Below, piece after piece: positions 4,596 to 56,568 of a stretch of DNA of 56,568 bases (its first letter is position 1; each line of letters begins with the position of its first letter). The stretch lies in the IMG/VR virus record IMGVR_UViG_3300045988_108312; one strand, given 5' to 3'. The position numbers and the translations under genes were made by a program. The notes beneath the pieces were generated by a model. The model had not been told where the DNA came from, did not search any database, and saw only the letters and a list, made by a program, of their open reading frames with translations. The stretch comes from a virus.

Positions 4596-5288
4596 ATGCA
4601 TAAGTTTGCGAAACAGATTATGGATTGCGTGAAAGCCCACGTTGATGGCATCGGAATCGAGAATTTTGAGGGTCAAAACCTTGATGATCTTAAGGACTGG
4701 ACGGAGATTGCAAAGAACATCGTATGCTTTGACAAAGACTACCGAATTGTAGAAGCTATGGAAAAATCGGAAGATAACGAAGAAATTATGCGGATGATTG
4801 AAGAGTACGAAGATTACCCGGAACGTAGATTTTATGACAGTTATCGTTATAAGACTACTGGCAGATATGCACCAAAGGGCAGAGGTACGTATGTAGGCAG
4901 ACGTGGCTATGAAGAACCGCCATATATGCACATGATGAACAGGGAAGATTTACAAGACTGGGATTCCATGTCTGAACGTGAGCGTATGCGTGACCTTGAC
5001 AGGGCATCAAGGGGACGTATGTACTATACAGAGACAGAACCCATGCACAAAGACGGTGGTATGAGAGACAGCAGAGAGGGCAAAGCTGGCATGATGCGTA
5101 AGGGCTACATGGAAACCAAAGAAATGCATAAGGGCAGTACACCGCAGGACAAGGAAGCCAATATGCGCAGTCTGGAAGAATATCTGAAAGAATTGTCAGA
5201 GGATTTAACTGGTCTTTTGTCTGATATGACACCAGAAGAGCGTCAAATGGCAAAGACAAAGATTACCACACTTGCGGCTAAGATGTAA
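4596..5288 (+). CDS. Hypothetical highly charged, R/M/E/Y-rich (probably disordered) protein
   Basis: RBS AAGGGAGG; 230 aa, low complexity in the middle (RRFYDSYRYKTTGRYAPKGRGTYVGRRGYEEPPYMHMM...). Confidence 0.7.
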   Translation: MHKFAKQIMDCVKAHVDGIGIENFEGQNLDDLKDWTEIAKNIVCFDKDYRIVEAMEKSEDNEEIMRMIEEYEDYPERRFYDSYRYKTTGRYAPKGRGTYVGRRGYEEPPYMHMMNREDLQDWDSMSERERMRDLDRASRGRMYYTETEPMHKDGGMRDSREGKAGMMRKGYMETKEMHKGSTPQDKEANMRSLEEYLKELSEDLTGLLSDMTPEERQMAKTKITTLAAKM

Positions 5289-5294
5289 GGAAAT

Positions 5295-5326
5295 AGGCTA
5301 GGGCTAATAACTCTAGCCTTTTTTTA
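5295..5326 (+). terminator. Rho-independent terminator
   Basis: AGGCTAG-ggctaataact-CTAGCCT followed by TTTTTTT. Confidence 0.8.
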
Positions 5327-5375
5327 AATAGAACCTTGAAAATAAAATAATGGCTAGAAAATTTTGAAATAGTAC

Positions 5376-5404
5376 TTGACTTATTGTGCGTACTATTATA
5401 TATT
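5376..5404 (+). promoter_or_regulatory. Sigma-A-type promoter
   Basis: TTGACT (5376-81), 17-nt spacer, TATATT (5399-5404). Confidence 0.6.
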
Positions 5405-5435
5405 AAATGTGCGGACAGAAAGTGAGGTGCATAAA

Positions 5436-5609
5436 ATGTCTCCACGCACAGGAAGACCTAAATCTGACAATCCAATGAATGATAGAATTTATGTAAGGGT
5501 AACAAGGGAAGAAAAAAAGGAAATAATGGATTTTTCATCTAAAAATGGTTATACCATACTAGAATTAATCAGAATTGGAATTGAGAAGATAAAAAATCAA
5601 AAAAAATAG
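5436..5609 (+). CDS. Ribbon-helix-helix (CopG/MobC-like) DNA-binding protein
   Basis: ATG 5436 after GTGAGGTG; GRPKSDNPMNDRIYVRVTREEKKEIMDFSSKNGYTILELIRIGI is a typical RHH N-terminal strand plus two helices. Confidence 0.65.
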   Translation: MSPRTGRPKSDNPMNDRIYVRVTREEKKEIMDFSSKNGYTILELIRIGIEKIKNQKK

Positions 5610-5729
5610 AGTATTGCGACCGCTACCAACGAAAACAACACTCTATAAACCGAGATATCTCTCATGTGAAATATTCTATCACATAAGGGAATCTCACACA
5701 AGTATTATTTTGAAAGTGAGGTTTTAATA

Positions 5730-5973
5730 ATGGACAAATTTTTAGAAATCGTTTATGAAGGACAGTTTGAAGAAAGAAAAATGACAGACAAGTATATGGA
5801 ATTTTTTTAAGCCTACTCTTGATAAGCTAAAAGGAATTTTAAGCCCTGAACTTTACGAGACAATAGAGCAAGAGTTTATTGACAATGCTGTTGATTCTAA
5901 CAGATTTTATGCGGTTGAAGGTATGAAACTGGCTATTGGCATAATTGACGGAACTTATATTCCATTTGTTTAA
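5730..5973 (+). pseudogene. Frameshifted 80-codon ORF: 5730..5810 continues in the +1 frame 5809..5973 if one T of the T7 run (5802-5808) is skipped
   Basis: RBS GAAAGTGAGG; MDKFLEIVYEGQFEERKMTDKYMEFF* then KPTLDKLKGILSPELYETIEQEFIDNAVDSNRFYAVEGMKLAIGIIDGTYIPFV*. Confidence 0.45.
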
Positions 5974-6156: not shown

Positions 6157-6849
6157 ATGGCAGAACTTGTAAAGATTGAAAATACAGAAATGGCAATCAA
6201 AGAATATAACGGTATGAGAGTTGTCACTATGAAAGATATTGACAGGGTTCATCATAAAAAATCCGATACGGCAAAGAAGTCATTTCAAAAGCATAAGAGT
6301 CATTTTATACTTGGAACGGATTACTTTGAAATTACAAGAAAAGAGTTAGGGGAACGATATTCCCCCAACGAAAAAATAGTCGGAAATCCCAATATGAAAA
6401 CATATCTCTTTACAGAAAGCGGATATCTCATGATAGTAAAAGTTTTTACGGATGATTTAGCATGGGAAGTACAGCGTCAACTGGTAAACTCTTACTTTGC
6501 GGTCAAGAATCAGATGGAAACAGCAGAACCAAAGATAGAGGATTGCAACTATCATGTCAGCATGACACCTGTACCAAAGACACCTACATGGTATGCAAGG
6601 AATCAGCGCAGGATTGAAAGGATAGTCCAGGCAATACACGGTAAAAAATCACAGTTGTATCATAGAATCCTGTTGTTTGTTGGAGAAGAATACGACCTTG
6701 ATGAAGCCGCTGCTATCTATGAACAGGAAAAGGGATATCCACCAAGATATTCCATGGACATGATTAGTTACTTCCCTGAATTATCAGAGTGCGCAGACAA
6801 ATATTTGGAATGTGCCGAAAAATCCTTAAAGGAAAGTGGAAAATTATAA
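6157..6849 (+). CDS. ORF6N/KilA-N-type DNA-binding protein (phage antirepressor-like)
   Basis: RBS GGGGGA; IKEYNGMRVVTMKDIDRVHHK...HFILGTDYFEI...LFTESGYLMIVKVFTDDLAWEVQRQLVNSYF; paralogue of 40816..41646. Confidence 0.75.
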   Translation: MAELVKIENTEMAIKEYNGMRVVTMKDIDRVHHKKSDTAKKSFQKHKSHFILGTDYFEITRKELGERYSPNEKIVGNPNMKTYLFTESGYLMIVKVFTDDLAWEVQRQLVNSYFAVKNQMETAEPKIEDCNYHVSMTPVPKTPTWYARNQRRIERIVQAIHGKKSQLYHRILLFVGEEYDLDEAAAIYEQEKGYPPRYSMDMISYFPELSECADKYLECAEKSLKESGKL

Positions 6850-6860
6850 TAGTGCAAAAG

Positions 6861-6892
6861 AAACCGCCAACCGTAAAAAGCTGGCGGTTTTT
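6861..6892 (+). terminator. Rho-independent terminator
   Basis: AAACCGCCA-12 nt-TGGCGGTTT followed by TT. Confidence 0.75.
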
Positions 6893-6909
6893 GGATAGGA
6901 GTTGATTTT

Positions 6910-7233
6910 ATGTATTTTATGGTAAATGGTCAGCTGTGGCAATTAGCTTTTGTTCCTGCCAATAGTCAAGACTTACAGCGCAGTGACGGAGCGTACACAT
7001 TTGGAGTTACAGACAACAACACTAAGACAGTATCAATAGCAAGCGGTATGTCTGCATATATGACAGAACGTGTAATCTGTCATGAACTAACTCATGTCAT
7101 GTGCTTTGAGCATGATATGTCTATACCTATAGATTTGGAAGAACGGTTGTGTAATTTCATGGCTGATTATGGAAAAGAGATAATATATCTGCTAGATGAT
7201 TTGCTGGCAAAGTTGCGTACTAATGCGATTTGA
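6910..7233 (+). CDS. Small HExxH zinc-metallopeptidase-like protein (ImmA/SprT-like size and layout)
   Basis: RBS TAGGAG; VICHELTHVMCFEHD contains HExxH. Confidence 0.6.
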   Translation: MYFMVNGQLWQLAFVPANSQDLQRSDGAYTFGVTDNNTKTVSIASGMSAYMTERVICHELTHVMCFEHDMSIPIDLEERLCNFMADYGKEIIYLLDDLLAKLRTNAI

Positions 7234-7332
7234 GATTGATTTTTGCAAAAAAATTTCAAATTTCCACAGAAAAATGTTGAAAAAAGATGTGTACCTAAAA
7301 ATCCCTAGGAGAAAAAAATATTCTGAAACAAA

Positions 7333-7443
7333 TTTGACCGCCCCTGGGGTACTTTTCTAACTGGGATTTTCAGAACGGTTTTGAAGCAAAATTTTGTTCT
7401 GATTTTCCGCAACATTCGGAAAAATTTTGATGCCCCCTGGGGT
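7333..7443. repeat. Two copies of TTTGA(C/T)(C/G)(G/C)CCCCTGGGGT(A/G), 93 bp apart, each with the palindrome CCCCTGGGG, set among four AAAATTTT/AAATTTT palindromes
   Basis: Copies at 7333-7350 and 7426-7443; AAAATTTT at 7388, 7421, 7480; AAATTTT at 7528. Confidence 0.7.
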
Positions 7444-7944
7444 GATTTACAGCTTGAAAAGTCATTTTAGAAATGCGCCAAAATTTTCAGAGGATTTTAA
7501 GCGGATTTTCTCCAGAAAATGAATCAGAAATTTTAGTGTGCTAAAGTGCCATGATTGAGCCTGTCAGAATGCGATCATGTAAGGGCATGGAAACACTACC
7601 AAATAGCAAGCCACTAAAAGCACCGTAAGCGTCCTGTGCGTATCTGGTGTATAAATCCATGCGCACATAATGCAATCGCTTAGAATCGGTTATAATGCTT
7701 TACAGGAAATGTTTACATAACTATGTTGACTTGATGCAATAGCCATGTGAACGCACAGAATGACCAGATAGCGACAATATAAGACCATGCACAGAATTAC
7801 AGCATAGTACAGTTATAGACAACTGTACGCCTGTTTTATGCTCTTGTCAAGGTACGGTTACTGCATACGGCTACATGAACGTATAACGCACACATAGCCC
7901 TGTACAGTAACATGGAACTGGAAAAAGAGCGGAACAAGTCCACT

Positions 7945-8657: not shown

Positions 8658-8918
8658 TTAAATATTTATCTTGTATTCTTTACGACTGCTATAGTCGTAT
8701 TTTGTGCTTAGTTCGCATGCATCCGAATAATATACAGAATATCCGCTGTTTTCTAATTCCTGTATAACACTTGGGTTTATTATATCCGTAAATTTTAAAA
8801 CGCAATACGGATGTAACAATATATTTCTGTTTTTCGGCTTTTCAAACTCTAAGAACTCTTTTATTTTGTTCTTATCTGGCTCTTTGTAGCCTAAACATAT
8901 CACATTGTATCTTTTCAT
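8658..8918 (-). CDS. Hypothetical 86-aa protein (shares the KPKNRN motif with 7945..8532)
   Basis: ATG 8918 lies 8 nt after AAAGGATGG; the track start 9011 lacks an RBS and overlaps the upstream gene. Confidence 0.55.
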   Translation of the reverse strand: MKRYNVICLGYKEPDKNKIKEFLEFEKPKNRNILLHPYCVLKFTDIINPSVIQELENSGYSVYYSDACELSTKYDYSSRKEYKINI

Positions 8919-13682: not shown

Positions 13683-14291
13683 ATGGCAGATATTAAAGCT
13701 ATAGACCAATCTAATTGTATAAGCATTGTTAAAGATATTATAGCCAAATATTGCGCAGCCAACGATCTTGACGAGCATGATATACCCCCACAGATATGGA
13801 ACGATATCATAGATGAGATTTACATAAATGTCTTTAAGGATAACACTATACTTCTTAAAGATATACCTAGTCCATATAATCAATATAATCAGGATAAGGT
13901 ATTATATATATATAATTATATATACAAGAGGATATGTAATAATCATTGTCAGGAGGTTACATTAAAGGGATTTATAGACATGACAGGGATAGATAAACAG
14001 ACTATCTATAACTGGAAATCGAGTACGAATAGTTTCGACTTGCACGAAAAAATCATGGACGATAACGAGCAATCGTTGGAAGCTATGTTACATGACAAGC
14101 GTATAAATCCCATGAAAGTATTACCGTCACTAAATAAAAAACATGGATGGAATCTGCCTGGCGTGAGCCGAGAGAAAGCCAATAATACAGCTCTACCAAT
14201 GTCAGAATTACTACAGTTAGGTGCAAATAATGGCAGTTTTCAGCAATTAGAAGAAAATAATAGTATTATTGACAGTAATACAAACAGCTAG
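13683..14291 (+). CDS. Terminase small subunit (putative)
   Basis: ATG 13683 after CAAGGAGGTG (the track start 13488 has no RBS); HTH-like GFIDMTGIDKQTIYNW and C-terminal NPMKVLPSLNKKHGWNLPG resemble TerS families; position upstream of the packaging/head genes. Confidence 0.55.
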   Translation: MADIKAIDQSNCISIVKDIIAKYCAANDLDEHDIPPQIWNDIIDEIYINVFKDNTILLKDIPSPYNQYNQDKVLYIYNYIYKRICNNHCQEVTLKGFIDMTGIDKQTIYNWKSSTNSFDLHEKIMDDNEQSLEAMLHDKRINPMKVLPSLNKKHGWNLPGVSREKANNTALPMSELLQLGANNGSFQQLEENNSIIDSNTNS

Positions 14292-15143: not shown

Positions 15144-15145
15144 TT

Positions 15146-15232
15146 ATGGACAATGTAAACCATCCAAGCTATTACAACTTATCAAGCAACGAAAACGGGC
15201 AGAGTAGGTTCGACTCCTACCGTTGCTATTAG
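15146..15232 (+). CDS. 28-codon ORF with a DUF3310-like N-terminus (MDNVNHPSYYN) that stops inside the tRNA-like minihelix; a truncated or interrupted gene
   Basis: Good RBS AAAGGAG 6 nt upstream; VNHPS(H/Y)Y is the hallmark start of DUF3310 phage proteins (from memory); the rest of that domain is not found downstream. Confidence 0.4.
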   Translation: MDNVNHPSYYNLSSNENGQSRFDSYRCY

Positions 15233-15660
15233 TCCTGTTTTCAGCATTTTGGACAGGACGCACACACTATTTACCTTTTCTTCCGAGATAGGTATGTAAT
15301 CTCCTCTACACCAGTTAGGACTACTGTTAAGGGCGGTGAGAGACCGTCCGACTGGTATCGGTCGAGTGAAATTCCACAACACTTGACCGCTTGGTGAAAC
15401 CCCGAACCATAGCTTACGCAGATATGACCGTTACAGTCGGATTCCCCTTTACTTAATAATTCTTAGTGGTAATAGCTTAAATAGTTACTACGCGAGTAGT
15501 AGATGTGTGGCGGAATGGGTAAACGCAAGCAAAGAAACTGATTGATAGCATGTTTGCCGAGTAATAAGCGGAGACTGTCCGTAATTAGCAACAAGCAGCT
15601 TTCAGAAATCAATCATGTGAGGTTCAAATGAGTATCAACCACCATCTAAAGAAGCGTTGA
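15182..15660 (+). ncRNA. Candidate large structured RNA (unknown class) beginning with a tRNA-like acceptor/T-arm minihelix
   Basis: No + strand ORF. Minihelix: AGCAACG (15185-91) pairs CGTTGCT (15221-27); T arm GTAGG-TTCGACT-CCTAC. Hairpins 15232-59 and 15331-49. Long-range helix 15346-63/15426-42. GCGA tetraloop hairpin 15485-502. Visibly higher GC than the flanks. Confidence 0.5.
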
Positions 15661-15801
15661 GAAATTTCGGCATAAATATTTCAAGAGAAATTTTAGATTA
15701 TTTTAGCGTTCCGAATATTCAGCCTGATAAGATAAAAACAACCGAATTTCCAGAATGGTCATGCCAATATAATCAAGAACCGATTGAGAGAGGTGTTGAG
15801 A

Positions 15802-16200
15802 ATGAAAAGAATACTTAAAATTGTAGCAAAGACATTAATTGAATATGCCAGAATAATTGCTATTTGCTTTGTGGCTTGCGTAATAGGAGCAATTTTTTAT
15901 ATTTTGTTAGGCAAAACAGCATATGCGTGCTATTGGATAGCGGTTATTTTGCTTGTGATTATCAGAGATATAACGATAAAGTCAAAAATGCAGGAAAGCA
16001 AAAAGATTAAATTATTACTTTTACAGTATGAGGACGGCAGTACAAGTTTGTGCGTCGGGGATAAGCAAATTAGGCATATGACAAATATTGATATGCATAT
16101 TGATAAGCTTCAGACAAAACTGGAAGTAGACCAAGTAACAAAAACTGGGAAAGTAACACATGTTGTTTTAATGGACGGTGGGAAGAATGAAGATAATTAG
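15802..16200 (+). CDS. Membrane protein (2 TM helices plus a soluble C-terminal domain)
   Basis: ATG 15802 after GAGAGGTG; IIAICFVACVIGAIFYILLG and YACYWIAVILLVII hydrophobic helices. Confidence 0.65.
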   Translation: MKRILKIVAKTLIEYARIIAICFVACVIGAIFYILLGKTAYACYWIAVILLVIIRDITIKSKMQESKKIKLLLLQYEDGSTSLCVGDKQIRHMTNIDMHIDKLQTKLEVDQVTKTGKVTHVVLMDGGKNEDN

Positions 16201-16369
16201 AGAGGGCAGTTTGGAATTTGCTAAGAAACTTATTCGCTTTGAGTGTAAGGAATGTAAGACCATATTTGAAGCGGATAAGGGAGAATATGAATATTGCGGA
16301 TGCCAGATTGAAGGTGACGAATGGAAAGCTGAATGTCCATTGTGCCACAATACGGTTTATGCAAGATAG
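16187..16369 (+). CDS. Small zinc-ribbon protein
   Basis: ATG 16187 after GGTGGGAAGA; CKEC...CGC...CPLC. Confidence 0.55.
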   Translation: MKIIREGSLEFAKKLIRFECKECKTIFEADKGEYEYCGCQIEGDEWKAECPLCHNTVYAR

Positions 16370-16387
16370 GAAAGAGAGGAAAGATTA

Positions 16388-16933
16388 ATGAAAAATAACT
16401 GGAAAATGGGATTAATAATTGCATCAGGAGTAATAGCGGTCATTGCTTTGTACATATTTGGGGTTCAGAGTTCGCAGAATAAGGCTTTTGTTTTGGAAGA
16501 AGCTGTAGACTCTGCAAAATCTGATATTAGTGTGCAGGAACAACGAAGAGTTGACCTAGTTTACAATCTTGCAGATTGTGTAAAACAGTATGATAAGCAT
16601 GAAGCAGAAACATTAAAAGCTATCGTAGCTGGTCGTGGCTCTACAGGAGATATTGAAAATGCCACAACAGCTATTACAGCGGTTTCAGAAGCATACCCAG
16701 AACTAAAAAGCAATGAAAATTATAAGCAGTTTATGAACGAATTATCTATTACAGAAAATCTGATTGCACAGTACCGGGAAAACTACAATAAGCAGATTAG
16801 AGAATATAAAAGATATGTCAGGAAGTTTCCCACAAGAATGTTTTTGGATATGTTGGGATATGAGGAACGGGAATACAAGTATCTTGAATATGATGCCCCA
16901 GAAAAAGCACCGCAAAATCTATTTGGAGATTGA
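16388..16933 (+). CDS. lemA: LemA family membrane protein
   Basis: N-terminal TM then QRRVDLVYNLADCVKQYDKHEAETL...AYPELKSNENYKQFMNEL..TENLIAQYRENYNKQIREYKRYVRKFP, a typical LemA layout. Confidence 0.85.
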   Translation: MKNNWKMGLIIASGVIAVIALYIFGVQSSQNKAFVLEEAVDSAKSDISVQEQRRVDLVYNLADCVKQYDKHEAETLKAIVAGRGSTGDIENATTAITAVSEAYPELKSNENYKQFMNELSITENLIAQYRENYNKQIREYKRYVRKFPTRMFLDMLGYEEREYKYLEYDAPEKAPQNLFGD

Positions 16934-16935
16934 TT

Positions 16936-17697
16936 ATGAGTAATTTTGAGATAACCAAAAGGGAAATACTTGCAAGCATCACTATTGTTGCTATCATGTT
17001 ACTTTTCGGTGTATTGATTTCAGAGAAAATATCAGAAAGCCAGGCAGATGAAAATGATATGTATAACAAAGCAATTCATATTGAATCTACAGATATTTTC
17101 CAATATGGAATGAACACAAATGTAGGTAACGCCTTTGTATATGGAGACTTGAAAGCAGTTGACACGGTTGCATATCCAGAAATAGGCGGCGAATACATTT
17201 ATGTGAAAAAAGTAGAAGAAAGATACGAAAAGCATGAAAGAGAAGTAACTAAGACAGATTCTAAGGGAAAAAAATATACGAAAACCGAAGAATACTATCG
17301 GTGGGACACATACGATTCAGAATCTTTACAGTCAGAAAAAGTCTCTTTCCTTGGAATAGTATTTCCGTGTGCTAAAATTAATTTGCCCAGTGCAGATTAT
17401 ATAACAACTATAAACGGTGGAAAAACATACAGTTGGAAATCTGGGGAATATGTAAAAGTAAAATTTGTTTACTATGGCATAGGAACAGAATTTATAGGAA
17501 CTATATTCACAGATTTGAGAGACGGAACAATTTCAGATAAAACAAATTTTTACAATGGATTATCTATTGACGATACGATTAACATATTGGAAACAAACGG
17601 AAAAATTGGAATTGTTTTGTTTTGGATTTTTTGGATTATCTTAACAGGGTCTTGCGTATTTGGATTTTACTATTTGGATAATGCATGGATTGAATAA
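16936..17697 (+). CDS. Membrane protein with N- and C-terminal TM helices flanking a ~200-aa domain (GIDE-like architecture, the type often paired with LemA)
   Basis: ATG 16936 lies 6 nt after GGAGA (the track TTG 16930 abuts the RBS); ILASITIVAIMLLFGVLI ... IGIVLFWIFWIILTGSCVFGFYYL. Confidence 0.6.
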   Translation: MSNFEITKREILASITIVAIMLLFGVLISEKISESQADENDMYNKAIHIESTDIFQYGMNTNVGNAFVYGDLKAVDTVAYPEIGGEYIYVKKVEERYEKHEREVTKTDSKGKKYTKTEEYYRWDTYDSESLQSEKVSFLGIVFPCAKINLPSADYITTINGGKTYSWKSGEYVKVKFVYYGIGTEFIGTIFTDLRDGTISDKTNFYNGLSIDDTINILETNGKIGIVLFWIFWIILTGSCVFGFYYLDNAWIE

Positions 17698-17747
17698 AAT
17701 AAATTAAAAATAATTTAGTTGTTGATTATCAGCGGAAAAGAGATTTT

Positions 17748-18119
17748 ATGAAAAAAATTTTTAAAACCATTATTCCCATTATTGTTATTGTTGTTAGCAT
17801 TGTTGCACTGATATTATTTTTAAATTGGGCTAATAAAACCAAAAAATACGAATATGAAATAGAAGAGATACAAAGTGGTATTTATGTTAGATACCAAATT
17901 ACAGCTTCATGTACGCCAGCTTACAACTATGAGATAATTACAGTTTGCATAAATGGACGACTGATAACCTACAAGGGAAGCGTTGAATTTATTTTTGTAG
18001 AAAATGAGAACAAAATCGAAGTCACAGAAAAACCTAATATGGTTCATGGCGATAAAGTCATTGTCTATACTTCAAAAGACAGTGTCGAATACTTAGGAAC
18101 TGTAGAAATTGGCAAATAA
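17748..18119 (+). CDS. Small membrane-anchored beta-rich protein
   Basis: N-terminal TM IIPIIVIVVSIVALILFL; weak RBS. Confidence 0.6.
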   Translation: MKKIFKTIIPIIVIVVSIVALILFLNWANKTKKYEYEIEEIQSGIYVRYQITASCTPAYNYEIITVCINGRLITYKGSVEFIFVENENKIEVTEKPNMVHGDKVIVYTSKDSVEYLGTVEIGK

Positions 18120-18203
18120 ATATATTTACCGGCTAACAAATGGAGTTAGTCGCTAACCTAGAAAAATTATAGGCAGAGGTCAAGGCACTTCTGCTATGCG
18201 GAG

Positions 18204-19976
18204 GTGTCCTTTTTGGCAAGTAAGGATTTAATAAACCAGTTAAAAGGTAATGACAATTACATAGAGCGAAAAGGAATCCATAACATTGTTAAAAATGGGG
18301 AATCCGAAGAAGTAATAAATGCCTATGTCAATTCTATACAGTGGGGTATGTATAATGACAAAGACATACCATTCTCACTGGAAATTTCCAATAAAACAAA
18401 GAAATTAATAGACAGCATAGTTGCGGAAAGCACAGGCGGCGGTCATATTGACGATTTAGAGATATACTGCGGAGATAATAACGCCGAATTTTTAGTCTTA
18501 AATAACTACTATGAGGTATTAAGACTGGAATCCGCATACCTGGTAGACAGCTTTTTCCGATATATTGAGATTGACGAAAAAGACCCATACAAGAGATTTT
18601 ATTTTCCGAGAAAGAAAGTATTACAGCCAGTTGTAGGTGCTTACCAAGAAATATATGACGGTAAACTTGATTTTCTGTCCGTATCACAGCCTAAACGTAC
18701 TGGAAAAACTACAGGCGGATTGCGACTTGCTATGATGATGGGCGGTCGTGACCCGGATGGCAGTATATTTGGCGTTGGTAAAGGAGAAGGACTTGTTAAG
18801 CGATTTTATGGCGGTTTGTTACAAGGATTTGAAACAGAAAGCACGTACAAAAGATTCTTAAGTGTTTTCCCAGAAGCAACGAAGATAGGAGAAAATTACA
18901 AGAGTGCTGAAAATCTTTCAATTGACCTTAAAAAGAAAAATATATTCCCGACATTCACTTGTAGACCTATAGACGGTGCCATTGTAGGATGTACCGAAGC
19001 AAATGTTCTTGTATACATTGACGACTGCGTAAAAAACCACGAAGAAGCAAGGAATCGTGACCGCCTGGAGTTCCTTTGCGAAAAGGTTACGGATGATGTA
19101 CTTGGACGTAGATTAGAGGGTACGCCTATTATTATACAGGGAACTAAATACAGTCTGTATGACCCGATTACAGCACTACAGAATAAAGCTGATGAATTGG
19201 AGTGGAGATGGAAAGAGGTTGCGATTCCGGCGCTTGACCCGATCACAGATGAAAGCAATTGGGAGATTTATCGAAAAGATAAAAAGGGATTGCGGAAGAT
19301 ATTCACAACCGTTTACTACCAAAAGGAAAGAAAACTTGTTTCGGAAGAAACGTGGGCGGCAGAGTTCCAACAAGAACCATTTGAAGCAAAAGGGCGAATG
19401 TTTGCAGAGAATGAGCTTAATTACTTTGAAGAATTACCAATTGACAGAGAACCAGATGCGATCATGGCGGCTTGCGATAGCGCAGATAAGGGAGAAGACA
19501 GTTGCTCAATGCCTATTGGTTATGTATACGGAAATGAGGTTTATATCGTAGATGTAGTGTTTGACAACGCCGGAACACAGTTTACCAAGCCGGAATGCGC
19601 AAATATGCTTATTAAGCACAACGTAAAGACGGTGACCTTTGAAAGCAACAGTGCAGGAGAATATTTCGGACGTGATGTAATGGAGCTTGTTAAAAAACTG
19701 GGTGGAAGATGCAGTGCAAGGTTTAAATTCAACTGTACTAACAAGATAACCAGAATGGAAAACGCTAGAGATAATATCATCCGTGATTATTATTTCAGAG
19801 ATTTTAAGAAAATGGACAGGCAAAGTCAGTATTACAAATTCATGAAAGAACTTACGACCATAACAAGAAGTGGAAAAGTAAAGCATGATGATGCACCGGA
19901 CTCTATAGCATTGTTTGAGAATGAAATGAGAAACGGTGGTATTAAGACAACTGTTATTATGCAAAGTCCTATTTAG
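18204..19976 (+). CDS. terL: Terminase large subunit
   Basis: Walker A SQPKRTGKTT, Walker B VLVYIDD, C-terminal RNaseH-like nuclease (ACDSADKGED...HDDAPDS). Start is GTG 18204 or, better spaced from GGAGG, TTG 18213. Confidence 0.9.
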   Translation: MSFLASKDLINQLKGNDNYIERKGIHNIVKNGESEEVINAYVNSIQWGMYNDKDIPFSLEISNKTKKLIDSIVAESTGGGHIDDLEIYCGDNNAEFLVLNNYYEVLRLESAYLVDSFFRYIEIDEKDPYKRFYFPRKKVLQPVVGAYQEIYDGKLDFLSVSQPKRTGKTTGGLRLAMMMGGRDPDGSIFGVGKGEGLVKRFYGGLLQGFETESTYKRFLSVFPEATKIGENYKSAENLSIDLKKKNIFPTFTCRPIDGAIVGCTEANVLVYIDDCVKNHEEARNRDRLEFLCEKVTDDVLGRRLEGTPIIIQGTKYSLYDPITALQNKADELEWRWKEVAIPALDPITDESNWEIYRKDKKGLRKIFTTVYYQKERKLVSEETWAAEFQQEPFEAKGRMFAENELNYFEELPIDREPDAIMAACDSADKGEDSCSMPIGYVYGNEVYIVDVVFDNAGTQFTKPECANMLIKHNVKTVTFESNSAGEYFGRDVMELVKKLGGRCSARFKFNCTNKITRMENARDNIIRDYYFRDFKKMDRQSQYYKFMKELTTITRSGKVKHDDAPDSIALFENEMRNGGIKTTVIMQSPI

Positions 19977-19989
19977 GAGAGGAGTAAGT

Positions 19990-20418
19990 ATGCAGACAAA
20001 GGAATATCTTAACCAGATAAGCAGGCTGAATAGAATGATTAATAACAAACTGGTGGAAATACAGCAGTTGCGAGAAATGGCTTGCAATGTTACGGCTATA
20101 CAGAATGATGAACGTGTAAAGTCTACCCCAGACCTAGACAAGTTAGGTGCTACGTTCTCTAAAATTGATGAAATGGAACGTGAGCTTGACTGCATGATAG
20201 ATGGATATGTTGACAAGAAAAATACGATTATAAGCCAGATAGACAGCATGGAAGATGAGAATGTCTATAACATTCTTTTTGCAAGGTACATTGAGAAAAA
20301 GACATTTGAAGTAATGGCAACTGAAATGAATTACTCTTTTAGGAATATTACTAGGCTACATGGCAGGGCATTAAAGGAATTTGAAAAAAAATACGGTGAA
20401 CAGTATATTGGATCATGA
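19990..20418 (+). CDS. Sigma-70 region-4-like phage transcriptional regulator (DUF1492/RinA-like class)
   Basis: ATG 19990 after GGAGAGGAG; YNILFARYIEKKTFEVMATEMNYSFRNITRLHGRALKEFEKK. Confidence 0.6.
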   Translation: MQTKEYLNQISRLNRMINNKLVEIQQLREMACNVTAIQNDERVKSTPDLDKLGATFSKIDEMERELDCMIDGYVDKKNTIISQIDSMEDENVYNILFARYIEKKTFEVMATEMNYSFRNITRLHGRALKEFEKKYGEQYIGS

Positions 20419-20557: not shown

Positions 20558-20752
20558 TTGATAGAATCAAAAACAATATACTGTCCAATATGTCATAGAA
20601 CGGTAGGCAGGCATGATATGCGGTCACAGACAAATACAATCTGTAAGTGCCGCAAATGTGAAAAGAGAATCATATACCACTATGACACAGGAGAGACAGA
20701 AGCAAAGAGATTACCACAGAGAGCCACATCAAGCGGCGTATCATTTGTTTAA
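20558..20752 (+). CDS. Cys4 zinc-ribbon small protein
   Basis: TTG start 6 nt after AAGGGGGA; CPIC...CKCRKC. Confidence 0.55.
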   Translation: MIESKTIYCPICHRTVGRHDMRSQTNTICKCRKCEKRIIYHYDTGETEAKRLPQRATSSGVSFV

Positions 20753-25200: not shown

Positions 25201-25470
25201 ATGGATATAACATCAGTATCAACAGTAGTTGCAATCGTTGTAATTACATATCTGATAGGCTTAGGAGCTAAAGCAATCCCACACATTAAGGATAATTACA
25301 TTCCTATAATCGTAGGCATTGCAGGCGGTATCTTAGGTATTGTTGGAATGTATGTAATTCCAGATTTTCCGGCAAATGACATTCTTAATGCAATCGCAGT
25401 AGGAATTGTGTCCGGATTATCAAGCACAGGCGTCAATCAGATTTATAAACAGGTAAAGAAAAATGCTTGA
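25201..25470 (+). CDS. Holin (A118 Hol118 / Hol44-like, holin superfamily V)
   Basis: ATG 25201 after GGAGGTAAGG; TM helices and the C-terminal GLSSTGVNQIYKQVKK motif resemble the Hol118-type holin. Confidence 0.65.
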   Translation: MDITSVSTVVAIVVITYLIGLGAKAIPHIKDNYIPIIVGIAGGILGIVGMYVIPDFPANDILNAIAVGIVSGLSSTGVNQIYKQVKKNA

Positions 25471-40640: not shown

Positions 40641-40787
40641 ATGAGTGAAAAGGAAAAGCAGATTGTTGAGAAGTTAAAAGATGCAATCCCTAAAATGTCA
40701 GACTTTGACAAGGGCTATATTCTTGGCAAGGTCGAGAACATGGCAGAAAATTCTGCGAAAAAAGAGGTTTCCGAAAGCAAAGAATAA
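40641..40787 (+). CDS. Hypothetical 48-aa protein
   Basis: RBS GAAAGGAAGTG; below the track cutoff. Confidence 0.45.
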   Translation: MSEKEKQIVEKLKDAIPKMSDFDKGYILGKVENMAENSAKKEVSESKE

Positions 40788-40815
40788 TTTATCAGAATTT
40801 AGGAAAGGAGAAGAA

Positions 40816-41646
40816 TTGAATAAATTAATTCACATTGGAAATGCTGATATTTCCATCAAAGAGTACAAAGGAAAAAGAGTGGTCACGTTTAAGGACATTG
40901 ATATGGTTCATGAAAGACCGGACGGAACAGCAAGAAAAAGATTTTCAGACAACAGAAAGCATTTTGTTGAGGGAGAAGATTATTTCGTTTTGAAACCGTC
41001 AGACCTTGAAAATACTGAACTGTCCGAAAAACGGACACTAGAAAATGTAGTAATGAGTAACTTCGGAACAGCACTCATTACCGAACAGGGCTATCTAATG
41101 TTGGTCAAGTCATTCACGGATGATTTGGCATGGGAAGTGCAAAGAAAATTAGTTTCTTCTTATTTCAATGTACATCAAAGCGTCAACAATCAGTTATCTC
41201 CAGAATTGCAAGCATTGCAAGGACTTCTTAATCAGATGGTTCAAAAAGAACTTGCTGACAAGGAGAGAGACAGGCAGATCGCCAAGGCACAGGAAACAGC
41301 ACAGAAAGCAATAGAAACAACTAACAGTATCAAAGAAGCTGTAAAACCTGTTTTCGATAATTGGCGTGATGAAATCAATGTTAAATTTAATCGTATTCAG
41401 AAAAGTGCATCTACACCATTTAATCTTTTACGTACAGAAATGTATTGTGAATTGGAACGTAGAGCAGGATGCGATTTGTCTACCAGATTAAGAAACCGTA
41501 AACAGCGCATGACTGATAATGGATGCACGAAAACAGAAATTAATAAGTTGAATCGCATGGATGTAATTGAGGAAGATAAGAAATTACGTGAGATATTTAC
41601 AAAAATAGTTTCAGAGTATGAAATTGAGTACTGCGCTTTTAAATAA
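40816..41646 (+). CDS. ORF6N/KilA-N-type antirepressor-like protein (paralogue of 6157..6849)
   Basis: TTG 40816 lies 5 nt after AGGAAAGGAG; IKEYKGKRVVTFKDIDMVHERP...HFVEGEDYFVL...ITEQGYLMLVKSFTDDLAWEVQRKLVSSYF. Confidence 0.75.
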   Translation: MNKLIHIGNADISIKEYKGKRVVTFKDIDMVHERPDGTARKRFSDNRKHFVEGEDYFVLKPSDLENTELSEKRTLENVVMSNFGTALITEQGYLMLVKSFTDDLAWEVQRKLVSSYFNVHQSVNNQLSPELQALQGLLNQMVQKELADKERDRQIAKAQETAQKAIETTNSIKEAVKPVFDNWRDEINVKFNRIQKSASTPFNLLRTEMYCELERRAGCDLSTRLRNRKQRMTDNGCTKTEINKLNRMDVIEEDKKLREIFTKIVSEYEIEYCAFK

Positions 41647-55819: not shown

Positions 55820-56563
55820 ATGAGCATAAAGCCTATATTATTTAATACTGATATGGTTCGGGCAATTCTGGACGGAAGAAAAGGTTGTACCAGACGAATT
55901 GTAAAAGGATTCATTCCAAATGATGCAAAATGGGGATATACCGCTTTTACACCTAAAGGGTGCATATCGTGTAGAGGTACATTTGCAGATGGGTATGGAG
56001 AGAAATTCTTTAAGTTGCCTTGCGAGCCGGGCGATATCCTTTATGTCAGAGAAACATGGCAATGTTGGCGAGCACACCGATACGAAGCAACTGCTGACAT
56101 AAGATTCAGAGCAGGCGGAGATGATGTGAGGTTGCAATTTGCAAATGGAAATACAGATTCCATAGACCGATTAGACTATGACACATTTGTACATAAGTGG
56201 TTTTGCCACAATGGAGAGTGGAAACCATCATTATTTATGCCGAAAGAAGCCGCACGCATCTGGCTTAAGGTTACGGATGTGAGAGTAGAGCGGCTGCAGG
56301 AGATGAAGCCGGTTGATGTGATAAAAGAGGGAGCTTATCCTGATTGTTGGGATTGTCTTAATACATACGGAGAAAGCGGTTCGCAGTGCTGTTATGGGAC
56401 AGAAGAACAGTGCAGTCAATGTGATGAAGTGATGATGGAATGGGAAAAACTTTGGACCTCCACCATCAAGAAATCCGACCTTGACTGGTATGGTTGGAGT
56501 GCAAACCCTTGGGTATGGGTGATCGAATTTGAACGGTGTGAAAAGCCAAAAGAAGAAAACTAA
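55820..56563 (+). CDS. ASCH/PUA-like domain protein (putative)
   Basis: RBS TAAGGAGTG; KPILFNTDMVRAILDGRKGCTRRIV...GDILYVRETW. The 3' end (56470-56563) lies within the terminal duplication, so it is also present at bases 1..94. Confidence 0.55.
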   Translation: MSIKPILFNTDMVRAILDGRKGCTRRIVKGFIPNDAKWGYTAFTPKGCISCRGTFADGYGEKFFKLPCEPGDILYVRETWQCWRAHRYEATADIRFRAGGDDVRLQFANGNTDSIDRLDYDTFVHKWFCHNGEWKPSLFMPKEAARIWLKVTDVRVERLQEMKPVDVIKEGAYPDCWDCLNTYGESGSQCCYGTEEQCSQCDEVMMEWEKLWTSTIKKSDLDWYGWSANPWVWVIEFERCEKPKEEN

Positions 56564-56568
56564 ACTGA
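56470..56568 (+). repeat. Terminal direct repeat copy 2 (identical to 1..99)
   Basis: See copy 1. Confidence 0.95.

Follow-up and report, generated by a model that had tools for sequence, protein, structure and literature searches.

LemA proteins are among the commonest bacterial membrane proteins of unknown function, and we know of no cellular LemA with an established molecular function. In bacteria, lemA typically forms a pair with htpX or with a gene for a TPM-domain or GIDE-like protein. LemA domains have been linked to membrane remodelling in the case of MamQ and have been described as membrane-associated scaffolds, and for mycobacteria a LemA-like domain has been put forward as a scaffold at the membrane (bioRxiv 10.64898/2026.07.15.738315). 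Here we describe a LemA gene carried by a phage, in a 56,568-nucleotide stretch of viral DNA (IMG/VR virus record IMGVR_UViG_3300045988_108312; the window), where it is the third of five consecutive genes, g1 to g5, and directly precedes a gene for a second membrane protein, referred to below as the partner (g4). By sequence comparison, only LemA and the partner form a conserved unit, which recurs across phages that are otherwise wholly different in their genes. Like the bacterial representatives of the family (PF04011), including Thermotoga maritima TM0961 (PDB 2ETD), Listeria LemA and MamQ, g3 has the LemA domain and an N-terminal transmembrane (TM) anchor; unlike them, it is phage-borne and fixed beside a TMEM43-like protein.

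Among Pfam families, TMEM43 is the nearest to the partner, and GIDE is comparable in layout. TMEM43/LUMA (PF07787, formerly DUF1625) is as obscure as LemA, and its human member is a cardiomyopathy gene. Eukaryotic TMEM43 proteins have four TM helices and about 400 aa. In layout the phage proteins resemble them, with a large non-cytoplasmic domain, rich in beta structure, between a TM helix and further TM sequence, but they are shorter (about 250 aa) and possess two TM helices. With GIDE/MUL1 (PF12483) g4 shares the TM-domain-TM layout, although it neither matches the profile nor contains a RING domain. As for the pair itself, the nearest cultured and tractable examples are gp156–gp157 of the Schiekvirus EFDG1 and their counterparts in phage LC76P1, in which the same LemA-partner order is found and the two genes overlap or abut. 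These examples differ from the window in that LemA is 41% and the partner 28% identical, the phages are strictly lytic with genomes of about 150 kb, and the pair lies among nucleotide and NAD genes, distant from the terminase.

Co-inheritance of LemA and its partner

The two genes occupy the following positions in the window:

16388–16933, + strand: g3, LemA, 181 aa; PF04011 match of 105.5 bits, TM anchor at residues 8–26
16936–17697 (ATG start; alternative TTG at 16930), + strand: g4, the partner, 253 aa; phrog_3886 member with a TM-beta-TM layout

Since the survey took the loci that matched the query best, it is biased towards gut Clostridia phages. Within it, LemA stands immediately 5' of the partner in 78 of 80 IMG/VR loci, the other two being interrupted by a contig end, and in bacterial genomes and metagenome-assembled genomes the two are adjacent in 62 of 64 non-edge loci, one of the 62 being fragmented. 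The distance from the LemA stop to the partner start is mostly 2–5 nt in the surveyed loci, while in the window the spacing is a 2-nt gap if translation of g4 begins at the ATG and a 4-nt overlap if it begins at the TTG. LemA is more conserved than the partner, being 71–79% identical in loci where the partner is 54–62% identical and the flanking genes are unrelated. A GIY-YIG/NUMOD homing endonuclease (332 aa; 4964–5962 in locus L048) is inserted precisely between LemA and the partner in L048 and L051, and both genes are kept. Furthermore, the pairing persists where the partner has diverged to 28% identity, in the Enterococcus Schiekvirus phages and in Lysinibacillus phage LC76P1.

In a variant of the window phage, the protein P0005 (300 aa, on public contigs of up to 61 kb) results from an in-frame deletion that fuses LemA at residue ~110 to the partner at residue ~41. 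The junction falls at a short NEN/DEND microhomology, and the C-terminal half of LemA and the first TM helix of the partner have been removed. P0005 was considered as a natural LemA-partner fusion of the Rosetta-stone kind and rejected, as it is an internal deletion ended by a contig edge, and it represents a knockout of natural origin or else a chimera of the assembly. The sequences of the pair are not new in themselves, since PHROG families 1383 and 3886 and GenBank phage records already hold both genes, and literature searches found no paper that describes the pairing of phage LemA and its partner or any function for them.

Domain structure of the two proteins

The match of g3 to PF04011 lies far above threshold (cutoff 26.2 bits, E 2.9e-30) and aligns residues 44–176 with profile positions 2–146 of 149. 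In addition, g3 is related to PDB chain 2ETD_A (E 3.6e-23, residues 35–172) and to phrog_1383 (E 3e-47), and its layout consists of the TM anchor followed by a LemA helical domain of the four-helix-bundle type. The MamQ equivalog (NCBIfam NF040966) is not reached by g3 (78.5 bits against a cutoff of 250), and the similarity of the two proteins is confined to the shared LemA domain. The label of phrog_1383 is 'virion structural protein', in the head and packaging category, and the same name is used by RefSeq records NC_029009 and NC_048087, whereas the GenBank versions of these genomes say 'LemA family protein'. The structural label of phage LemA is probably a propagated mis-annotation.

The partner is the less familiar of the two. 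It matches phrog_3886 over its full length (E 1.2e-82), and its AlphaFold2 (AF2) model, with a mean predicted local distance difference test score (pLDDT) of 84.6, consists of a helix (10–47), a beta domain of about 160 aa (49–209) and a second helix (213–248). The family is large: its homologues form 2514 clusters when grouped at 90% identity, and at 50% identity there are 953 representatives with E values of up to 1e-3. Foldseek comparison of the g4 model with the PDB gave no fold match (best E 0.014, TM-score <0.2), and a profile search of PDB sequences returned nothing. Against BFVD, the model aligned with an unnamed viral protein at a TM-score of 0.72 and with giant-virus ORFans at 0.35–0.44, all of them uncharacterised.

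The initial annotation had described this protein as a LemA-partner of GIDE-like architecture, and what holds of that description is the layout: the TM helix, ~200-aa domain and second TM helix of GIDE are present in the g4 model, a layout which is not specific to GIDE. Membership of the GIDE family was rejected, as no Pfam scan matched PF12483 to g4 (at E up to 10), to 93 other family members or to the EFDG1 and LC76P1 homologues. Moreover, g4 lacks a RING domain, because the protein ends 9 residues after TM2 and has no Cys/His-rich tail. A relationship to TMEM43 is suggested by 3 of 62 diverse partner-family members, which match PF07787. P0246, a partner-family protein by its match to the family profile (E 4.8e-51), scores 28.0 bits, over the cutoff of 23.3 (E 1.8e-6), with residues 156–271 on profile positions 80–205, and P0232 scores 21.3 bits against the same cutoff. 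Neither g4 nor EFDG1 gp157 matches PF07787 itself, so that the link of g4 to TMEM43 is transitive only, via its relatives, and the TM segment could supply part of the P0246 score. Taken together, the profile comparisons suggest that the partner is a distantly TMEM43-like protein with a GIDE-like layout, and not a demonstrable GIDE member.

The strongest conservation in the partner family is found in the C-terminal tail after TM2 (F-Y-Y-L-D-N-x-W-[LI]-E). Also conserved are the N-terminal motif E-I-T-x-R-E, the stretch G-N-A-F-V-Y-G within the beta domain and aromatic residues in TM2. GenBank names for the Enterococcus phage homologues include 'transmembrane protein 43' and 'RING-type E3 ubiquitin transferase', the latter in phage EA1.

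Hosts, phage types and genomic neighbourhoods

Relatives of the partner come from Lachnospiraceae and further Clostridia, among them isolates of Blautia, Hungatella, Enterocloster, Roseburia, Cuneatibacter and Flintibacter, and the pair is also present in strictly lytic Enterococcus Schiekvirus phages (Herelleviridae), in Lysinibacillus phage LC76P1 and in a Latilactobacillus phage. In EFDG1, gp156 (LemA) and gp157 (partner) lie between a HAD-like gene (gp155) and an NMN adenylyltransferase gene, with two PnuC genes and NrdD flanking, while in prophages of isolates the pair neighbours genes for a phage DNA polymerase/primase, a helicase and NrdD. A TerL (terminase large subunit) of the window type occurs within 6 kb in only 15 of the 80 IMG/VR loci. 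The pair occupies variable accessory slots beside tRNA arrays, homing endonucleases, and replication or nucleotide genes, in temperate and lytic phages of Bacillota. Because it is present in lytic Schiekvirus phages and in the replication modules of prophages, it is neither linked to packaging nor specific to lysogens.

Among the neighbours, genes that bear on anti-phage defence recur. Tad3 is an inhibitor of ThsB and thus an anti-Thoeris protein (PMC13402655). Directly 3' of the partner, 27 of 80 IMG/VR loci carry a gene in which a HAD-like phosphatase domain is joined to a Tad3 domain (PF25185, E 3e-33); in L045, one of these loci, the fusion lies at 6739–7758, and it is also present at 8833–9900 in L125. 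The HAD-like domain corresponds to phrog_1238, which is mislabelled 'phosphoheptose isomerase', and in EFDG1 it forms a separate gene directly 5' of LemA. A Tad2-like gene (PF11195, E 9e-19) is a common 5' neighbour, and a SIR2-family gene (PF02146) is found immediately 5' of LemA in L005 (6412–7170), L006 and L007. The SIR2 gene of L005–L007 is situated on a ~130-kb phage contig, beside adenylosuccinate synthetase, phosphoribosyltransferase and YqeY-like genes. Of 161 loci, 42 have a Tad3 domain no more than 3 kb away, and 47 have a HAD-like gene homologous to EFDG1 gp155 at that distance.

A neighbour census was made with one representative per 90%-identity lineage, which gave 70 lineages and 122 immediate neighbours scanned with Pfam. 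Tad3 was the commonest family (6), followed by PAPS reductase (3), DNA methylase (2), DUF6275 (2) and Tad2-like (2), and SIR2, NAPRTase, isochorismatase and AAA_28 are among those seen once. The 25 commonest neighbour families listed, of 47 matched, contained no holin or endolysin family. These surroundings resemble Tad2/Tad3 anti-defence islands in that the pair of the relatives is flanked by Tad2-like or Tad3 genes and less often by SIR2, NAPRTase or isochorismatase genes. They differ from such islands in that the LemA pair has no similarity to known anti-defence proteins and the association is partial (18 of 70 lineages).

Genes adjacent to the pair

Three further genes of the window share the 15802–18119 interval with the pair:

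15802–16200, + strand: g1, 132 aa; hydrophobic, TM-like segments at about 18–36 and 36–59, one directly after the other, and a soluble tail of ~70 aa
16187–16369 (ATG start; alternative GTG at 16178), + strand: g2, 60 aa; zinc ribbon (CKEC...CPLC), phrog_2834 E 8.2e-7
17748–18119, + strand: g5, 123 aa; N-terminal TM anchor by hydropathy, domain only plausibly beta-rich

All five genes have a purine-rich ribosome-binding site (RBS) and homologues elsewhere, so they are real genes and not chance open reading frames (ORFs), and the coordinates given for them in the initial annotation are thereby confirmed. Hydropathy, Pfam and the AF2 model likewise bear out its description of a two-TM protein, a zinc ribbon, a LemA protein and a partner with TM helices on either side of a domain; TM segments are predicted in four of the five products, g2 having none. 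The genes had also been described as tightly packed and overlapping, which is accurate for g1 and g2 (an overlap of 14–23 nt depending on the start used, with g2 covering the g1 stop) and for the short LemA/g4 junction, but less so for the remaining gaps around the block, through the TerL start, of 18, 50 and ~84 nt. As for g5, taken to be a TM-anchored beta-rich protein, the N-terminal TM segment is confirmed, while the beta-rich character is only plausible because its AF2 model is poor (pLDDT 48.8). At E up to 0.1, no defence-system family of PADLOC-DB v2 matched any of the five proteins or two upstream proteins.

The larger claim, that the five genes form one cassette, does not survive comparison, as only LemA and the partner travel together in the IMG/VR and genome loci. 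Both g1 and g2 occur in 1 of the 80 IMG/VR loci carrying the partner and are confined to the closest relatives of this phage. With no match in Pfam, PHROG, PADLOC or NCBIfam and homologues in only 7 clusters, all 83–98% identical, g1 is a lineage-restricted ORFan outside the conserved module. In the case of g2, phrog_2834 carries the label unknown function and the Pfam zinc-ribbon matches are weak, all of them sub-threshold; g2 too is lineage-restricted. Homologues of g5 form 124 clusters, and g5 stands directly 5' of TerL in related 52–60 kb phages that lack LemA (L168–L171), while the closest LemA-bearing relatives (L001–L004) have different genes in the g5 slot. It belongs to the slot preceding TerL and does not depend on the LemA pair. 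On these comparisons the 'five-gene cassette' is best seen as a mosaic, in which the ORFans g1 and g2, a mobile LemA-partner module and the pre-TerL resident g5 share one variable slot.

A consensus scan found 25 promoter-like sites against 32 expected from shuffles and no convincing site 5' of g1. The single hairpin after g5 (18184–18208) is weak and overlaps the TerL start. The scans thus show no sign that the block is set apart by a dedicated promoter or terminator, as would be expected of a moron (an independently expressed lysogenic-conversion cassette), and consensus scans cannot settle expression.

The surrounding genome

Positions 1–99 of the window are identical to 56470–56568 over 99 nt (the first 50 nt recur at 56470). 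Given this terminal overlap, the window is no fragment: it is a circular assembly that covers the whole genome, about 56.47 kb. The same phage is carried by 19 public contigs from gut metagenomes. It is temperate, encoding a large serine recombinase (integrase) at 653–2056 (phrog_95, E 3e-102), and RecT is also encoded. Two anti-repressor paralogues are located in separate regions of the genome, at 6157–6849 and 40681–41646 (phrog_4608, E 2.5e-43 and 1.5e-45). The features flanking the five genes are:

13683–14291, + strand: sole candidate small terminase subunit (TerS), 202 aa; sub-threshold match to PF16677 (GP3_package)
15185–15228, + strand: tRNA 3' remnant (T-arm and acceptor strand); Rfam tRNA 23.2 bits, under the gathering score of 29
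18204–19976, + strand: TerL, terminase large subunit, immediately 3' of g5; phrog_38 E 1.6e-40

The initial annotation had placed the five genes inside the packaging module. TerL does follow g5 directly (the gene call on the source contig begins at window position 18213 instead), and it is succeeded by a DUF1492/phrog_36 regulator and then by an SPP1-type portal. On the other side, the TerS candidate reaches GP3_package at only E 0.013 (16 bits, cutoff 29.4) and has no informative PHROG match and no PDB relative; a location inside the module is not shown because this upstream candidate is unsupported. In the survey the link of the pair to packaging proves incidental, as TerL is seldom near and the pair of Schiekvirus phages and prophages lies elsewhere. 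The position of the sigma-like late regulator between TerL and the portal (19990–20418) is unusual, and it is followed by a 64-aa ORF with a four-cysteine zinc ribbon (20558–20752). In the related phages L168–L170, the TerL-portal interval holds a GH25/CW_7 endolysin instead. An 89-aa protein with a match to Phage_holin_5_2 (PF16079) is encoded at 25201–25470, in the middle of the head-tail block and well away from where lysis genes usually lie.

Small ORFs and a decayed tRNA array separate the TerS candidate from g1. The 660 nt 5' of g1 (15144–15800) are free of genes, and the tRNA remnant is the only feature recognised there; ARAGORN found no tRNA in the window. Relatives carry intact tRNA genes at the homologous place: tRNA-Ser(GCU) plus one more in L001, and five in L008. 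A structured RNA or an attP site in this gap was considered and rejected, as nothing reaches the Rfam gathering threshold and the fold z-score is only -1.95; the gap is a decayed tRNA array. Beside the tRNA remnant lies a non-coding block of ~250 nt (about 15229–15481) that is 87–95% conserved with the relatives, in which it falls between their two tRNAs. A short ORF (15147–15200) begins with MDNVNHPSYYN, which we take to resemble the N-terminus of DUF3310-type phage proteins, and it may be a truncated gene because it reads directly into the tRNA remnant.

Possible roles of the pair

We favour, with a probability of about 40%, the view that the membrane pair conditions or protects the host membrane during lytic growth, in a counter-defence or membrane-integrity role. 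In this model, LemA and the TMEM43-like hairpin protein would act as a functional two-gene unit, in which the two proteins, putatively coupled in translation, would assemble in the cytoplasmic membrane and associate probably through their TM helices and the conserved C-tail of the partner. The resulting complex would be active during lytic growth, either blunting membrane-targeting abortive-infection or defence effectors or keeping the membrane intact until programmed lysis. This role is favoured because of the distribution in lytic phages, the Tad2, Tad3 and NAD-salvage neighbourhoods, the remodelling and scaffold links of the LemA family, and the conservation of LemA, which is high enough to suggest a generic target.

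Several points weigh against this view. The idea of counter-defence is an argument of guilt by association: Tad2, Tad3 or SIR2 is found within 6 kb in only 18 of 70 lineages, as a raw frequency, and the window itself carries none of the three. The LemA-partner complex is itself putative, positive-inside counts leave the membrane topology ambiguous, and literature searches found no functional report on any phage LemA or partner. Furthermore, the module could equally serve the phage by excluding competitors. A more ambitious version, in which the pair would constitute a widespread, unrecognised counter-defence or membrane-protection module at the cytoplasmic membrane that is functionally tied to the NAD+/Thoeris arms race, appears distinctly unlikely.

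Superinfection exclusion, in which the pair would help the infected cell or lysogen by blocking the adsorption or DNA entry of other phages, seems unlikely to us. Both proteins are membrane-anchored, the variable accessory slots and the mixture of temperate and lytic carriers are as expected of exclusion genes, and the exposed domain of the partner evolves faster than LemA. Known exclusion proteins, such as T4 Imm and Sp, lactococcal Sie2009 and Streptococcus Ltp, are small, phage-lineage-specific membrane proteins encoded by single genes of narrow distribution in accessory regions of lytic and temperate phages. The LemA pair, however, consists of two genes, spans about 950 clusters at 50% identity and is conserved over disparate phages and hosts (Lachnospiraceae, Enterococcus, Lysinibacillus and Latilactobacillus), which argues for a generic target, and it shows no homology to exclusion proteins or sequence similarity to known defence proteins, PADLOC being empty. 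That the genes instead encode a prophage-borne defence or abortive-infection system, killing or arresting the cell when another phage infects, is improbable. Membrane effectors are common in abortive-infection systems, the window phage is temperate with a large serine integrase, and SIR2 lies directly 5' of LemA in L005–L007; nevertheless, none of the five proteins has a PADLOC match, the neighbours are mostly counter-defence genes (Tad2-like, Tad3) and not defence genes, and strictly lytic Herelleviridae carry the pair. For this last reason a role specific to lysogens is unlikely. What is supported in the initial annotation is that these are membrane proteins centred on a LemA gene with a TM-domain-TM partner, for which exclusion, lysis control and counter-defence are candidate accessory roles.

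Control of lysis timing, with the pair regulating a holin or antiholin or shielding the membrane from premature holin triggering, would agree with the membrane location, the remodelling links of the LemA family and a phage-type distribution that fits a role in the lytic cycle. We nonetheless give it little credence, because the pair is not beside lysis genes in the window, where the only holin-type Pfam match is at 25201–25470, because lysis families are missing from the 25 commonest neighbour families listed, and because the Schiekvirus pair lies among nucleotide-metabolism genes. An equally poor prospect is a membrane scaffold for phage metabolism or replication, for example one that organises PnuC-type transporters and NAD salvage or anchors replication. 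The scaffold proposal for the mycobacterial LemA-like domain, the EFDG1 pair placed between the HAD-like and NMN adenylyltransferase genes with PnuC on both sides, and the isolate prophages with polymerase/primase and helicase alongside would all suit it, but the neighbours vary by lineage, the window has no such genes, and variable clients are hard to square with a highly conserved LemA. A single membrane complex of the packaging or late module made from all five products is very improbable: the shared strand, close spacing, TM segments in four of five products and TerL immediately 3' speak for it, and they are outweighed by the rarity of g1 and g2 (1 of 80 loci, with g1 in only 7 near-identical clusters), by the presence of g5 before TerL in phages without LemA and its replacement in L001–L004, and by the scarcity of TerL near the pair (15 of 80). 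Finally, LemA is hardly credible as a virion structural protein, as the phrog_1383 label and the name of EFDG1 gp156 would have it, since its N-terminal TM anchor and its homology to cellular LemA speak against this, other records name it a LemA family protein, the Schiekvirus gene lies outside the structural module, and literature searches found no proteomic report.

Should the more ambitious version, with its tie to the NAD+/Thoeris arms race, prove right, it would provide the first molecular function for both the LemA and TMEM43 families. The LemA and TMEM43-like families are locked together in phages, with about 950 partner clusters at 50% identity. Importantly, the carriers include culturable and genetically tractable lytic Enterococcus phages, and the pair is repeatedly found beside anti-Thoeris and NAD-salvage genes, which makes it a testable candidate for membrane-level counter-defence or exclusion.

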